64,000 bases of DNA from a bacterium (lineage in GTDB: Bacteria; Armatimonadota; Zipacnadia; Zipacnadales; UBA11051). Both the position numbers and the translations under genes were made by a program. Numbering within the stretch: position 1 is the stretch's first letter; the number at the start of each line of letters is the position of its first letter. The notes beneath the pieces were generated by a model, which saw nothing but the letters and a program-made list of their open reading frames with translations, was not told the origin of the DNA and did no database searches. Of the stretch, positions 775 to 12,009 are shown piece after piece. The stretch covers positions 8,138 to 72,137 of the forward strand of contig JAUVVY010000019.1 of NCBI GenBank assembly GCA_030604405.1, in the 5' to 3' direction.

Positions 775-1707
775 ATGCAAGCGCGCTGGGGGCGAAGCAG
801 GTCTCCCGTGGAATCTGACCCGCTGTCGCGTGTTGTCACAGAGCGATGGCGTCGGCCCGGAAGCCTTATGGGGCTTTGCCTGTGGCGCGTTTTGCTCGTT
901 GTCGGTATCTCAAGCGCGTTGCCGGTCTGGGCGCAAAACGGTTCCGGAGCCAGGCGGCCAAGCGGCGTAGTCCCCGACATGTTCAGGCTTTCTCCCGCCA
1001 TTCCCGGAACCTCAGAATATGAAATGCGGCAGAGGGCCTCTGAGTTGGAGGCCGTGCTGGCCGACCTGGATGCGATCGTCTCGGCGCGAGTAAGCCTGCG
1101 GCAGGCAACCGGTGAGGGCGAGGCACCTGCAGCCGCCGTGCAACTCGAACTTACCGCGGACGCAGCGTGGTCGGCGCAACTTTCGCAGACCGTTGTGGCC
1201 CTTGTCAGTCAGCTTGAGCCGGAACTAACCCTGGAAGCAATCCTCATCACAGACAGACAAGGGCGCGTTCTGTTTGACAAGGGCCGCATTGCCACGGCTC
1301 CCGATCCCGCGCCGCAACCCCAGCCGACGGCGCTGGTACAGACGCTATCGGGGCCGGTGGCAATTGCCGTGGGCCTGGCACTGGGCCTGGTCGTCGTGCT
1401 TGGTTGGTGGTTGTTCGGAGCCAGGCCGGCTTTACGGGTGCGTGGACAGCCGTCGGCCCCGGAGGGCCCGTGGACATTCCTCGCCACTGTCGAACGCTCT
1501 AAGCTCAAGCGCGTGCTGAGGGCGCAGCGTCCCGAGCTTATCGGTGCGATCGCGGCTCAACTCGATGACCGCACCGCCGCACGCCTGCGGCCGGTGCTGA
1601 GAGCTCTTGACCATACGGCGATACCCGCGCCGGATCGGGCGATACACCCTGAAATAGCAGACGCCTTGGCAGTCAAAATCAGGCAGATGCTTGCGGAAGA
1701 GGAATAG
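775..1707 (+). CDS. Miniature FliF/SctJ-type ring-building domain + TM helix + FliG middle-domain fusion protein
   Basis: N-terminal hydrophobic/signal segment; ELEAVLADLDAIVSARVSL...PAAAVQLEL...VVALVSQLEPELTLEAILITDRQGRVL matches RBM2; TM VAIAVGLALGLVVVLGWWLF; PWTFLATVERSKLKRVLRAQRPELIGAIAAQL...IHPE matches FliG-M; occupies the fliF-fliG position before fliH. Confidence 0.75.
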   Translation: MQARWGRSRSPVESDPLSRVVTERWRRPGSLMGLCLWRVLLVVGISSALPVWAQNGSGARRPSGVVPDMFRLSPAIPGTSEYEMRQRASELEAVLADLDAIVSARVSLRQATGEGEAPAAAVQLELTADAAWSAQLSQTVVALVSQLEPELTLEAILITDRQGRVLFDKGRIATAPDPAPQPQPTALVQTLSGPVAIAVGLALGLVVVLGWWLFGARPALRVRGQPSAPEGPWTFLATVERSKLKRVLRAQRPELIGAIAAQLDDRTAARLRPVLRALDHTAIPAPDRAIHPEIADALAVKIRQMLAEEE

Positions 1708-1725
1708 TAGGTAAGAAGAGGGGGG

Positions 1726-9236: not shown

Positions 9237-11245
9237 TGGACATCTTCCGACACATCTCCGCCCAGATGGTGGTCGCCCTGGCGGCCGCCCTGGCGATGTT
9301 GGCCCTGATTGTTCCACTTCCGGGCTGGGCGCTGGACCTGCTGTTGTCCGCCAATCTGGCGATTTCGCTGGCCGTCTTCGCACTGGCGTTGCTGGTCAGG
9401 AGGCCGGTGCGGCTCAGCGGCCTGCCCGGCCTGATCGTGGTCTCAAGTCTGGGCCGTGTGGTCCTGGCTCTGGCCGTGGCTCGGAATATTCTACTGGGCG
9501 GCACCGGCGGCGAGGTGGTCTCGGCGCTTGGGGCCATCGGCGCGGGCGGCGGCTGGCTGGTCGGAATTGTGGTGGTGCTGATGGTGGCGCTGATAGACCT
9601 GCTGGTTATCGCCGTCGGCATGGTGCGGGTCTCTGAGGTCCTGGCCCGGTTTGCCCTCGACGCCTTGCCGGGACGACAGATGGGCGTTGATGCCGCCGTC
9701 GCCGATGGCCGTCTGACCGCCCAGGAAGCGAGCGATAAGCAGCAGCAGATTGACGACGAATGCGCTTTCTACGGGGCTATGGACGGGGCTGCTCGGTTTC
9801 TGCGTGGGGACTGCACTGCCACACTCGTCATTGTCGCTGCTACTCCACTCGTGGCGCTTCTGATTGGCGAGTCGGCCGTTGCAACGACAGGTGGTGACCT
9901 GGCCAGTTACCTGCAGTTAGCGGCCGGGCACGGGCTGGTGATTCTGTTGCCGGCATTGCTGATCGGCGGAGCCGGGGCGATGGTTCTGGCGCGCGCAGGC
10001 AGTGAAGAGACGTTTGGCTCAGAAATTGCAGGTGAACTGTTGGTGCAGCCGATGGCCCTGGGCGCCGCCGCCGTAGTGCTCTTGGTAATTGCCCTCATCT
10101 CGCCTACAGCGCGGCTCCCGCTGATCGTCATGGTACTGGTGATCGCAGGGGCAGCGGTGGCGTTCAGAAGACAGTCGGGTGGACCGCTGCGATCGGACGT
10201 GTCCGGGCAGCAACGTGACGGTGAGAACCGCATTGAGATCGGCCTGGGATTGATCCATCTTATCCAACACGAAGAGTTTGAGACTATGCTCGCCGAGCTG
10301 CGACAACGAGTGCAACGACGAATCGGCTTGCCCGTGAAGCCTTTTGTCGCCACCGACAGCAGCGAGCTGGGCATGAATCAGGTTGCCCTGGTGGTCAACG
10401 GGCAGCTCACCGGCCAATGCACGGTTCGTCCCGGGCGGCTGCTTGCCGTTGGGACGTCAGCAGAAGATTTCGCCGGAGCCGATGAGGCCCGTTGTGGCGT
10501 GCGAAATGTCGGCGCGTGGATCGTTCCTGACGATGAAGAGACAGCCCGCCGCGATGGGATAGAGGTGGTCGAGCCGCTGCCGGCGCTACTGATGCTGGTG
10601 GAAGATAGGCTGCTGGCCAGCGCCGACGAACTCTTCGACGCCCGGCGCGCTGCAGAGATGCTGGGTGAAATGGCAACAACGCATCCGGAGCTGGTCGAGG
10701 CAGCGCAGGCTCAGGGGCTGGACGCGGTACTGCTGCGCCGAATTGGGACGGCGCTGCTGGCCGATGGCGTTAGCTTGCAGAACTCTCCGGGCATCCTTGA
10801 AGGCGCCGTTGAGGCCCTGCGCGCGGGCAGTGACGAAGATGGCGTGATCGAGGCAGTGCGCAAACGACTTAGTCGGAGCATCTGCCAGGCCGCCGGCCCT
10901 GACGGGACTATCCTGGCCATTGAGTTGGCGCCGGCGGTGGCCGAAGAGCTGGCTGTCAGCTATGCCAACGGTCAACTGGCGATCCCACCACAACGCGCTG
11001 AGCGGTGGCTGCGACTGCTTGCCGAACATGGCCGGGAGACGTTGCGCAGAAAACACCCAATTGCCGTGCTCTGCGACGCGCAACTACGCCCCGCGCTAAG
11101 TAAGCTGATTGCTGAGAGCGGACAGAAGCTGATGGCGATTGCATTTGACGAACTGGCACCTGATTACTCGGTCGAGCGGCTGGGAATCATTACTGAGGCT
11201 GAGATATCCGGCCAGGAGCAGGTTGCCAAGCGGGCCGAGGAGTGA
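9233..11245 (+). CDS. flhA: Export gate protein FlhA/SctV
   Basis: FHIPEP motif RVSEVLARFALDALPGRQMGVDA...FYGAMDGAARFLRGD; TM domain + large cytoplasmic domain. Confidence 0.95.
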   Translation: MMDIFRHISAQMVVALAAALAMLALIVPLPGWALDLLLSANLAISLAVFALALLVRRPVRLSGLPGLIVVSSLGRVVLALAVARNILLGGTGGEVVSALGAIGAGGGWLVGIVVVLMVALIDLLVIAVGMVRVSEVLARFALDALPGRQMGVDAAVADGRLTAQEASDKQQQIDDECAFYGAMDGAARFLRGDCTATLVIVAATPLVALLIGESAVATTGGDLASYLQLAAGHGLVILLPALLIGGAGAMVLARAGSEETFGSEIAGELLVQPMALGAAAVVLLVIALISPTARLPLIVMVLVIAGAAVAFRRQSGGPLRSDVSGQQRDGENRIEIGLGLIHLIQHEEFETMLAELRQRVQRRIGLPVKPFVATDSSELGMNQVALVVNGQLTGQCTVRPGRLLAVGTSAEDFAGADEARCGVRNVGAWIVPDDEETARRDGIEVVEPLPALLMLVEDRLLASADELFDARRAAEMLGEMATTHPELVEAAQAQGLDAVLLRRIGTALLADGVSLQNSPGILEGAVEALRAGSDEDGVIEAVRKRLSRSICQAAGPDGTILAIELAPAVAEELAVSYANGQLAIPPQRAERWLRLLAEHGRETLRRKHPIAVLCDAQLRPALSKLIAESGQKLMAIAFDELAPDYSVERLGIITEAEISGQEQVAKRAEE

Positions 11246-12009
11246 TAGGACTGCGACCCGAACAAGCCGGCGTGCGAACCGGTCATAAAGGCCCCAGTGC
11301 CGCTCGGCAGCGGCTGATAACCGACAACGTTGACCTGGTACACTACATCGTGAGCCGAATCGCGATCCACCTGCCGGACAGAGTGGACAGAGACGACTTG
11401 GTCAGCGCCGGTCTTATCGGGCTTGTCAAGGCGTCCGACCGCTTTGACGAAAAGCGGGGTATCAAGTTCCGCACGTACGCGAGCAGTGTCATTCGTGGCG
11501 AAGTGATGGAGTCGTTGCGTGCCAAGGACTGGGCGCCCCGCAGCGTCCGGCGCAAGGCCCGTCAACTGGCGGGCGCTGTGGGGGAGCTGGAGGGGCGTCT
11601 GGGCCGGCCGGCCACGGACGCCGAAATCGCCGACAATCTCGATATTAGCATTGACGAATACTATGACCTGCTGTCCGAGACCAGCGGCGCTAACTTAGTG
11701 TCGCTGGACGAACTCCTGGACGAATGGCAGCTAGACGCCGGCGACGGCATGGCTCAACCGGCCGCCGACGACAGCGCCAACCCCGCCGAAGTGCTGGAGC
11801 ACGAGGCCCTGCTTGAAGTGGTGGCCGTAGCAGTGGAGCGCCTGCCCGAACGCGAGCGGCTGGTCGTGGGGCTGTACTACCAGGAAGAACTCACGCTCCA
11901 GGAAATCGGCCAGATTCTGGGTGTCACTGAATCGCGCGTCTGCCAGATTCACACCCAGGCCGTGACCCGTCTGCGGGCCACTTTGCACCGTGAACTGGGC
12001 CTGCCGTAG
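11242..12009 (+). CDS. fliA: RNA polymerase sigma factor, FliA/WhiG (sigma28) family
   Basis: DDLVSAGLIGL...KFRTYA..IRG...LRAKDWAPRSVR...LYYQEELTLQEIGQILGVTESRVCQIH. Confidence 0.93.
   Translation: MIGLRPEQAGVRTGHKGPSAARQRLITDNVDLVHYIVSRIAIHLPDRVDRDDLVSAGLIGLVKASDRFDEKRGIKFRTYASSVIRGEVMESLRAKDWAPRSVRRKARQLAGAVGELEGRLGRPATDAEIADNLDISIDEYYDLLSETSGANLVSLDELLDEWQLDAGDGMAQPAADDSANPAEVLEHEALLEVVAVAVERLPERERLVVGLYYQEELTLQEIGQILGVTESRVCQIHTQAVTRLRATLHRELGLP

Follow-up and report, generated by a model that had tools for sequence, protein, structure and literature searches.

A gene cluster at positions 775-12009 of a 64,000-nucleotide stretch of DNA (henceforth the window; GCA_030604405.1, contig JAUVVY010000019.1, positions 8,138-72,137 of the forward strand) rather probably encodes a working type III export machine with a role other than motility, which is maintained by selection, derives from a flagellar operon of the fla/che type and constitutes a separate paralogous system in one order of Armatimonadota. 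The host is an uncultured sediment bacterium of that phylum (Zipacnadia; Zipacnadales; UBA11051), known here from a metagenome-assembled genome (MAG) only; this genome, G000, comprises 4.37 Mb in 96 contigs and is 96.88% complete and 1.32% contaminated. We call the system type B, a name given to the divergent class of FHIPEP-family proteins that contains the FlhA of the window. A preliminary description of this DNA had claimed a maintained flagellum-type export machine in a genome without a detectable flagellum, and both family searches and the ratios of nonsynonymous to synonymous substitutions (dN/dS) support this; it had missed, however, a lipoprotein gene, the truncation of FlhB and the paralogous status of the system.

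The plus strand of the region holds 13 open frames, 12 of which are named by Pfam or NCBIfam at the places given in that description. The row begins with a ring protein of 310 amino acids (775-1707; Pfam YscJ_FliF, 26.8 bits), a FliH/SctL-type ATPase stator and regulator (1726-2343; Pfam FliH, 84.6 bits) and a FliI/SctN-type export ATPase (2359-3729; TIGR01026, 571.8 bits against a cut-off of 379.5). These are followed by a charged helical protein of 146 amino acids in the FliJ/SctO slot (3737-4177), which is assigned by position and coiled-coil-like composition only and which BLAST recovers in the loci of 5 relatives. Next come a FliM-like/SctQ-like protein of 287 amino acids (4174-5037; FliMN_C only, 48.7 bits), a SpoA protein of the FliN/SctQ-C type (5003-5359; FliMN_C, 69.5 bits), FliO (5349-5720; Pfam FliO, 30.4 bits against a cut-off of 22, and TIGR03500, 44.1 bits against one of 55.25) and the export-gate subunit FliP (5695-6441; Pfam FliP, 213.8 bits; fliP 203.3 versus SctR 144.5-161.7 bits). 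The remainder of the cluster encodes FliQ (7439-7684; Bac_export_3, 59.5 bits; fliQ 50.7 versus SctS 43.5 bits), FliR (7697-8434; Bac_export_1, 91.1 bits; fliR 73.6 versus SctT 42.8 bits), an FlhB of 263 amino acids consisting of membrane domain and linker (8445-9236; Bac_export_2, profile positions 3-235 of 335), the type-B FlhA (9233-11245; FHIPEP, 392.6 bits; FlhA 357.6 bits against a cut-off of 772, versus SctV 273 bits) and a sigma-28 paralogue of the FliA/WhiG family (11242-12009; TIGR02479, 251.6 bits against a cut-off of 189.6).

The flagellar order of the named genes, as claimed previously, is thus backed by family matches in all cases except 'fliJ'. The same description had the genes in a contiguous row; here the order stands and the contiguity does not, as the minus-strand gene of a 278-residue lipoprotein, which we name lipoX (6438-7274, with lipobox and ribosome-binding site), splits fliP from fliQ. 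The closed junctions that it reported are real, with fliJ/fliM and flhA/sigma each overlapping by 4 bases, as flhB/flhA also do. Contigs from two other studies (95-97% alike) span the junctions fliI-fliJ-fliM, fliP-lipoprotein, lipoprotein-fliQ and flhA-sigma, and therefore the arrangement is no accident of assembly. Likewise, the intact FliI Walker motifs are read in the translation (Walker A GSGLGKS, Walker B MMDS, and GERGRE), and the flanking genes are as described, with a minus-strand FGE-sulfatase gene (3-527) on one side and, on the other, a gene of PpiC/PrsA-like type (12144-13202) followed by MazG.

All type III secretion system (T3SS) core genes, i.e. those for the ring, FliH, FliI, the FliN-type protein, FliP, FliQ, FliR, FlhB and FlhA, score above their Pfam cut-offs, whereas the parts of the export apparatus all fall under the cut-offs of the flagellar NCBIfam equivalogs. 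Within these sub-threshold scores FlhA, FliP, FliQ and FliR lean to the flagellar side, and FlhB, FliN and FliH slightly to the Sct side: FliN gives 71.1 bits with SctQ versus 67.1 with fliN, both under cut-off, and the flagellar and Sct models are about equal for FliH, again all under cut-off. FliI is under every flagellar and Sct equivalog cut-off, with a slight lean to the flagellar models. Pfam searches of the cluster recovered no Secretin domain, as had been claimed, and no outer-membrane part is encoded there; nine Secretin matches sit elsewhere in G000, all on contigs other than that of the window. Nor did any cluster ORF (open reading frame) match SctF, SctD or a translocon family in Pfam, the genome itself not having been searched with the SctF or SctD families, and no effector-like or chaperone genes were seen in the cluster.

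That type B is a second system becomes apparent from a comparison of 41 genomes of the order, G000 counted among them. Their FHIPEP matches fall into a canonical class scoring 690-873 bits and the divergent type-B class scoring 271-418 bits, the window FlhA having 391.7 bits in this search. Type-B FlhA occurs in 23 of the 41 genomes, distributed over the families f1, f3, f4 (genus g12) and f6. At least 13 of the 41 combine it with a canonical FlhA, flagellin and rod/hook genes, and in seven (G000, G006, G011, G012, G023, G033 and G037), drawn from four genera and with completeness values of 87-97%, type B occurs without flagellin or Flg_bbr_C. The nearest relative of G000, G001, has flagellin, rod genes and a canonical FlhA. 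In G008, a member of the same genus as G000, the canonical cluster encodes its own FliN, FliP, FliQ, FliR, FlhB, FlhA and sigma factor, with 27-48% identity to the window proteins. Since the relatives possess a separate canonical apparatus, type B is a second apparatus whatever G000 may lack, and since it coexists with complete flagella it is, by these sequence comparisons, a paralogue and not the remains of a local flagellum. In a sample of 301 genomes from the phylum, full-length FlhA proteins at least 34% identical to that of the window all came from the same order; the closest named FlhA proteins belong to an Armatimonadota MAG labelled Candidatus Zipacnadia (91%) and to an 'uncultured Armatimonadia' MAG (78%).

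Conservation of the cluster was examined in 20 type-B loci, with the window proteins as the only queries. Gene order is kept across family f1 and also in f6, there minus the lipoprotein, and the sigma gene lies directly after the type-B flhA in all 20 loci (52-89% identity); the housekeeping genes of the window contig are likewise syntenic with relatives. In genus g12, represented by three aflagellate MAGs of 60-80 contigs, the type-B genes are scattered over at least three loci, yet all are intact: flhA-sigma among housekeeping genes, fliN-fliP-fliQ-fliR-short flhB, and fliI. The dN/dS values (Nei-Gojobori method, mainly against G008) of 14 cluster genes range from 0.075 for fliP to 0.40 for the ring gene and fliJ, with fliI at 0.112, the sigma gene at 0.122, flhA at 0.20 and lipoX at 0.295, and are comparable to those of the flanking prsA (0.16) and mazG (0.105). 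Against the closest relative (dS about 0.2) the genes from fliQ to sigma give 0.07-0.32, and the type-B FlhA frames are open, without internal stops, in all 23 genomes. The preliminary description had proposed that dN/dS near 1 and frameshifts in relatives would mark a relic; neither the dN/dS values nor the FlhA frames of relatives look like this, and the cluster is under purifying selection with no decay.

The flagellar genes of G000 were sought by six-frame family searches, each of which was positive in four of 14 control genomes. Flagellin_N, Flg_bbr_C, Flg_bb_rod, FliE, FliG_C and MotB_plug gave no matches in this 96.88% complete genome; MotA was not subjected to a family search, and the ORFs beside the hook gene of G008 had no match in G000. 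Thus the rod, hook, flagellin and stator genes, whose presence elsewhere had been named as the sign of a normal split flagellar system, were not found by family searches. The earlier statement that the parts for rotation, switching and axial assembly are lost holds for the axial and rotor parts, but 'switching lost' is too strong, because FlgM (see below) and a full FliM with a response regulator are encoded elsewhere. The latter FliM (FliM 73.1 and FliMN_C 59.3 bits) lies on contig 21 at about 31570-33430 (locus L047, 10072-11928, minus strand), directly behind the gene of a 249-residue response regulator, with the motif TAAA-N15-GCCGAAA between them. Two FliM matches are usual in g1 genomes that possess a canonical flagellum, against the single one in G000; G006, G012 and all three genomes of g12 are without any.

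The canonical flagellar cluster of G008 is situated on a 171-kb contig (contig 7; loci L036-L039 and L075-L080), which shares with G000 only nine blastn pieces of at least 300 bases, a single one of them orthologous-looking (76.7%), and the 83 ORFs from 80 kb of this contig have no orthologue-level match in G000. This near absence of DNA similarity suggests that the flagellar genes of the genus ride on a variable island or an extra replicon. As a separate observation, the flagellar genes of the Thermomicrobium roseum reference lie on a megaplasmid. The genome G007 calls for caution with every MAG-based absence, as it seemed aflagellate by FlhA and flagellin, yet has a canonical FliP and rod genes, and is probably just incompletely assembled.

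The ring protein departs markedly from an ordinary FliF. A transmembrane or signal helix (about residues 28-53) precedes a single periplasmic domain of the ring-building motif (RBM) type (about 75-170), which is followed by a second transmembrane helix (about 193-215) and a cytoplasmic helical tail (about 230-310); RBM1, RBM3 and the collar are absent. An AlphaFold2 (AF2) model, with a mean predicted local distance difference test (pLDDT) score of 71, has 88-93 (about 91) in the RBM domain and 80-88 in the tail, and folds the former as alpha-beta-beta-alpha-beta. The best Foldseek match is the RBM2 of FliF (6sd2_A; root-mean-square deviation 1.5 A, TMt 0.84, 27% identity), above EscJ and PrgK, and in FliF RBM2 forms the inner ring that houses the export gate. 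Profile comparison relates the tail weakly, and to no more than the beginning of the FliG middle domain (1lkv, E 0.011; 3ajc, E 0.034), and an unrelated RAD23 domain scores equally; an invariant R-P-E motif of the tail aligns with the E-H-P-Q motif of FliG, and the nearest Atlas clusters, to be taken as a lead only, are FliF-FliG fusions (scores 0.78-0.84). Orthologues were recovered by BLAST in seven of the 20 relatives' loci, and a profile search of 1.84 billion cluster representatives yielded 83 at E<=1e-10, most of them 250-350 amino acids long and matched end-to-end, which makes the ring family a sizeable one; beyond these the profile meets ordinary FliF proteins of 480-650 amino acids through RBM2 alone.

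The FliM-like protein has a C-terminal SpoA domain (FliMN_C), whereas its N-terminal 200 residues match no recognised family; no FliM N-domain was detected, and a profile of this region returned SpoA-domain matches only when searched against the Protein Data Bank (PDB). When the ring tail was modelled together with the FliM-like protein, the complex scored 0.78, versus 0.00 for the best of three controls; of 80 solved complexes 58 attain this mark, and of 110 mismatched pairs two do. The model runs have at least 93% of their contacts in common, with a partner pLDDT of 76 or more. The tail is therefore predicted to dock the FliM-like protein, its R-P-E stretch contacting residues 97-124 of the latter, including the invariant L101 and G102, an interface which we take to mirror the solved FliG-FliM contact. 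The pass may reflect likeness to solved FliG-FliM complexes. Together with the Foldseek match, the tail profile and the Atlas lead, this model agrees with the 'ring-fusion' of the preliminary description, understood as a FliF RBM2 domain with a FliG-middle-like tail.

Both large membrane proteins of the export apparatus have clade-specific alterations. All 12 type-B FlhB orthologues found are 238-264 amino acids long, and the five that were aligned, from four lineages, each end about 20 residues before the NPTH autocleavage site, which is present in all four references (two flagellar FlhB and two SctU). No separate gene for the FlhB C-terminal domain was found, the window FlhB being the sole Bac_export_2 match in G000, just as the window FlhA is the sole FHIPEP match. 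In FlhA the earlier description reported an intact FHIPEP motif; FHIPEP is the name of the family and no literal motif, but the gating residues R94, R147, R154 and D158 (Salmonella numbering throughout, from the aligned Salmonella sequence) are kept and do not vary among the 21 type-B sequences. At D208, type B has either D or E. All 31 flagellar FlhA retain the positions D456, F459 and T490 (acidic/F/T), presumably the pocket at which complexes of flagellar chaperones with their substrates dock; none of the 21 type-B sequences does, nor any of the six SctV. Thus type-B FlhA appears to have intact gating residues and to have lost the flagellar chaperone pocket. K203, in a conserved cytoplasmic loop, is R in 21/21 type-B proteins, versus K in 6/6 SctV and in all but one of the 31 flagellar FlhA, and serves as a marker of the clade.

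The lipoprotein has the lipobox L-S-G-C, of which G20 and C21 are invariant, and is found in the same slot in 10 of the 20 relatives' loci, all of family f1, and is missing outside that family. Its AF2 model (pLDDT 80.9; predicted template-modelling score, pTM, 0.76) is mostly beta, fold searches return weak likeness to open-barrel lipoproteins (4fvs, TMq 0.33), and Atlas offers a DUF3108-like lead with a score of 0.90 but low recognition. The divergent intergenic region at 7275-7438 has sigma-70-like hexamers on both strands (TTGACG-17-CATAAT with TG on the minus strand, GTTACA-17-AATAAT on the plus strand), which we treat as a lead only, the number of such sites in the region (three, with 2.3 expected) not standing out from shuffles. 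In genus g12 the fliP/fliQ slot, the same that lipoX occupies in family f1, contains a 142-residue membrane-protein ORF (G033 contig 50; L082, 9198-9626, minus strand) with a weak DUF4190 match under cut-off. Further along the window, the ORF list for 12000-64000 includes frames of 900, 1056 and 1370 amino acids.

All parts of a sigma-28/FlgM module are present in G000, namely the FliA/WhiG sigma factor, FlgM and a predicted sigma-28 promoter before flgM. The flgM ORF (114 amino acids; 68-70 bits against a cut-off of 25) lies on contig 73 at about 8260-8640 (locus L046), the contig ending at 9947. A textbook sigma-28 promoter, TAAAGTT-N12-GCCGATAT (TAAA-N15-GCCGATAT), ends 9 bases before this ORF, and the aflagellate G033, from another family, has the one-mismatch promoter TAAA-N15-GCCAATAT before its flgM. 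Downstream of flgM in G000 are a 105-residue ORF without a family and then a prepilin-type gene (N_methyl and DUF1559). FlgM was found in all seven genomes that have type B only. Inspection by eye of the region upstream of the ring gene recognised no sigma-28 or sigma-54 motif. Strict sigma-28 motifs in G000 fall inside a coding region on contig 17, before a 48-residue membrane ORF on contig 32, before an OmpR-type regulator on contig 70 and before flgM on contig 73; an attempt to define a regulon from them was dropped, four sites being too few. A five-copy match to a loose sigma-28 motif was likewise rejected as a promoter set, as it corresponds to a repeat of at least about 70 bases (containing CCCTCCCGCCTTCGCTAAAGCTATGGCGGRCARGCCGAAAGGCAACG) that occurs in at least five copies on contigs 6, 7, 33, 36 and 84, mostly within 250 bases of contig ends, and probably represents a dispersed repeat at which the assembly breaks.

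To place type B relative to flagella and injectisomes we constructed a maximum-likelihood tree of 58 FlhA/SctV sequences (LG+C20+F+G4, quick search, support by the Shimodaira-Hasegawa-like approximate likelihood ratio test, SH-aLRT). It comprises FlhA of type B (21 of the 23), canonical FlhA of the order (12) and FlhA of other Armatimonadota families (15), together with four flagellar references and six SctV (SPI-1, Ysc, Desulfovibrionales, Hrp1-like, Burkholderiales and Rhizobiales). Type B forms one clade (SH-aLRT 100) on a stem of 1.43, and the six SctV form another (100) without it. On the flagellar side of the tree, type B is sister (93) to the FlhA of the Armatimonadota families f24 and f37, the f37 gene belonging to a fla/che operon of ordinary type, which also has hook and MotAB genes, a full-length FlhB and genes of FlhF/G size. 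The sigma of this f37 operon (loci L060 and L061) is 41% identical to the type-B sigma and 28% identical to that of the canonical cluster of G008. This sister position and the sigma identities fit type B being a reduced descendant of a vertically inherited fla/che operon. Going by the sigma identities, the 'canonical' cluster may be the later arrival, with type B as the original in reduced form. The cluster also contains FliO, which one report describes as missing from some other T3SSs (PMC2947984). In an approximately unbiased (AU) test on a 30-row subset (LG+G4, FlhA only), a single clade of type B and SctV was not rejected (p=0.15, delta lnL 16.3), and the tree, built on this one protein, contains no Myxococcales or Chlamydiales references; therefore an independent origin of type B is favoured and not demonstrated. 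The independent exaptation suggested earlier accordingly draws support from the FlhA tree, the gene order, FliO, sigma-28 and FlgM, but the AU test leaves a clade with SctV standing.

Based on these observations we propose that the RBM2 ring would sit in the inner membrane around a FliP/FliQ/FliR gate assembled with the help of FliO, together with FlhA and the membrane part of FlhB, as homology indicates. The tail of the ring protein, a putative remnant of the FliG middle domain, would tether the FliM-like protein and FliN as a static platform, which would carry the FliH-FliI ATPase, probably with a FliJ-like stalk. Since the cluster is without rod, hook, filament, ring-turning or outer-membrane-crossing parts, substrates would be released into the periplasm. 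They would form one fixed, non-flagellar class, because there is neither an FlhB switch domain nor an FlhA chaperone pocket: a missing FlhB C-terminal domain would preclude switching between substrate classes, and a missing pocket the use of FlgN-, FliS- or FliT-type chaperones. By analogy with the classical flagellar checkpoint loop, the machine is probably coupled to sigma-28 through FlgM, whose export would free the co-transcribed sigma factor; less certainly, this would make type B a transcription switch gated by secretion, possibly with further substrates. A broader and more tentative proposal, which we regard as possible but doubtful, is that type B is a third, independently evolved offshoot of flagellar export beside the injectisome: rotor-less, rod-less and periplasm-facing, with its own sigma-28/FlgM circuit and one fixed substrate class, and used either for secretion-gated signalling or as the inner part of a new trans-envelope delivery system. 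If this were true, type B would reveal the form of a minimal T3SS that stands by itself.

Several observations weigh against the proposal of a working, non-motility machine with its own regulatory circuit. The 'fliJ' ORF has no Pfam, NCBIfam or relevant PDB-profile match. The lack of a flagellum in G000 rests on a 96.9%-complete MAG whose nearest relative has flagellar genes, and, as no clean deletion junction of the canonical flagellar region could be defined in G000, it rests on completeness. Branches leading to type-B FlhA are about 3-5 times longer than those of canonical FlhA between the same genomes, and this faster evolution could reflect relaxed constraint. The export of FlgM by the type-B machine is an analogy to which no result attaches, the enrichment of strict sigma-28 motifs in G000 is modest (four versus 1.27 expected, with a maximum of three in 30 shuffles), and the g1 genomes with both systems have a single FlgM match, which may therefore belong to the canonical flagellum.

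The alternatives differ chiefly in what the machine would be part of. Type B might be the inner-membrane half of a larger trans-envelope device, handing substrates on to another system, such as a type IV-filament/secretin machine, that delivers them out of the cell or into other cells, or as a nanotube-type conduit. The nine Secretin matches elsewhere in a genome whose cluster has no outer-membrane part, the prepilin-type gene within 150 bases downstream of flgM, the conserved lipoprotein embedded in the cluster in family f1 and the precedent of the Myxococcus xanthus T3SS*, which acts with a Tad-like pilus according to its description (PMC12075869), would all suit such a device. We nevertheless consider it unlikely, as the 20 loci, compared by means of the window proteins as sole queries, show no linked pilus or secretin gene, the lipoprotein is missing outside f1 and effector-like or chaperone genes were not seen in the cluster. 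Somewhat less likely still is an accessory exporter for the canonical flagellum, e.g. an exporter of FlgM or other regulators or an assembly helper, not yet lost from aflagellate genomes. Although the presence of type B beside a canonical flagellar cluster (at least 13 of its 23 genomes), the FliA-type sigma, closer to the f37 fla/che sigma than is that of the canonical cluster itself, and the single FlgM of two-system g1 genomes speak for it, seven genomes from four genera keep type B without axial genes, and it persists in all three g12 genomes despite its dispersal. Purifying selection is evident in the comparison of G008 with G000, where no flagellum was found, the type-B FlhA is without the docking pocket for flagellar chaperones, and the canonical clusters own a full export apparatus.

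A decaying relic of a lost flagellum would account for the want of flagellar structural genes in G000, for export parts all under equivalog cut-offs and for the long FlhA branches. It is largely refuted by dN/dS values like those of neighbouring genes, by FlhA frames open in 23 genomes, by synteny and clade-specific features kept across four families and by coexistence with complete flagella, and we regard it as very improbable. At least as hard to credit is an ordinary split flagellar system, the rest of which was lost in binning, or a contaminant contig. That G000 is a MAG of 96 contigs with a flagellated nearest relative, and that G007 turned out to possess canonical FliP and rod genes, would be compatible with a split system; but the canonical cluster of flagellated relatives has its own FlhA, FliP, FliQ, FliR, FlhB and sigma, and the syntenic housekeeping genes of the window contig and the junctions present in the assemblies of two other studies count against this alternative too. 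The separate, selection-maintained export machine is our preferred reading.

A search of the literature, in which subscription journals and supplements were out of reach, returned no description of this Armatimonadota system. A paper naming the nearest class identifies a 'type III secretion system' via flagellar structures (PMC10290634). Such clusters are now counted as 'flagellar' or 'T3SS' in MAG surveys, and motility may hence be over-called in them. In comparison with the canonical flagellum, type B shares the order fliF-(fliG)-fliH-fliI-fliJ...fliM-fliN-fliO-fliP-fliQ-fliR-flhB-flhA...sigma, the Pfam families, the FlhA gating residues and the RBM2-type ring domain of FliF. It differs in that FlgB, FlgC, FliE, hook, flagellin, FliG_C and MotB were not found in G000, that FlhF/FlhG are missing between flhA and sigma, and that FliF is without RBM1, RBM3 and collar, FlhB without its C-terminal domain and FlhA without its chaperone pocket. 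Unlike the injectisome, it has no system-linked Secretin SctC; in the 58-row tree its FlhA lies outside the SctV clade, a union of the two not being rejected by the AU test. The flagellin-less basal bodies of Buchnera are a filament-less flagellar machine in a non-motile bacterium and a proposed exporter; Buchnera has reportedly retained the genes for rod, hook and rings from the sole flagellar system that it possesses, whereas type B is without axial parts and is a paralogue.

The flagellar export 'CORE' (FliO, FliP, FliQ, FliR, FlhB and FlhA) has reportedly been implicated in the nanotubes of Bacillus subtilis. A 'hat' structure of the inner membrane has also been related to the flagellar T3SS (Kaplan et al. 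2022, PMC9380563). As in these cases, flagellar export proteins are proposed to act outside the flagellum, and the CORE genes are present in the type-B cluster; those systems, however, reuse a single flagellar set, whereas type B is a diverged paralogous set with its own ring, ATPase, platform and sigma. The orphan flagellar genes of Chlamydiaceae, according to their description, are few and include a FliF-FliG fusion, FlhA and FliI, with a complete injectisome beside them (Bergeron 2016, PMC4768692). The two rings are alike in having a short FliF (about 330 amino acids in Chlamydia, 310 in type B), two transmembrane helices, an RBM2-only periplasmic region and a FliG-middle-like tail, and in both cases the organism has no flagellum and possesses sigma-28. 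On the same account, G000 differs from Chlamydia in having a full gate, ATPase complex and SpoA platform and no recognised injectisome, and the Chlamydia-specific NCBIfam models score below the generic flagellar ones (PRK05910, 146.8 bits; PRK05922, 311 bits).

The closest known likeness is to the needleless system of Myxococcales. One report describes the 'Myxo' T3SS as lacking FlgBCDEK, FliE, FliG, FlgH, MotAB, secretin and needle, and argues from conservation that it is functional (Abby & Rocha 2012, PMC3459982), and another describes the M. xanthus T3SS*, without secretin, needle or translocon, as lysing prey together with the Tad-like (Kil) pilus (Herrou et al. 2025, PMC12075869). Going by these descriptions, both the Myxococcales system and type B, the latter judged from its cluster genes, are without rod, hook, FliE, FliG, MotAB, secretin, needle and translocon. 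Both have a conserved, vertically inherited core of gate, ATPase, small inner ring and platform, and coexist with other envelope machines, and an earlier annotation had the Myxococcales system as a relic; the likeness meant is one of kind and not of descent. Type B differs in belonging to the Armatimonadota, in keeping the fla/che order, FliO, a FliA-type sigma and, elsewhere, FlgM, in the flagellar-side position of its FlhA (with the SctV clade unrejected at AU p=0.15), and in its truncated FlhB and FliF(RBM2)-FliG(M) fusion ring, differences that were drawn without Myxococcales sequences. The kind of system is thus already known from the Myxo T3SS* and the Chlamydia fusion, and the function ascribed to type B itself is read from its sequences. 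Type B differs from this known kin in its phylum, in the flagellar hallmarks that it retains, in coexisting with true flagella in sister genomes, in its truncated FlhB and altered FlhA, and in having a dedicated sigma. The reductions of ring, FlhB and FlhA point to the T3SS parts that are dispensable for a non-motility role and to how substrate choice might be hard-wired, and the close relatives that carry type B with or without a true flagellum offer a natural experiment. The transition from flagellum to injectisome has usually been argued from one intermediate, the needleless system of Myxococcales; type B is a candidate second conserved case, probably an independent one, and would provide a testable replicate of the passage from flagellum to secretion.

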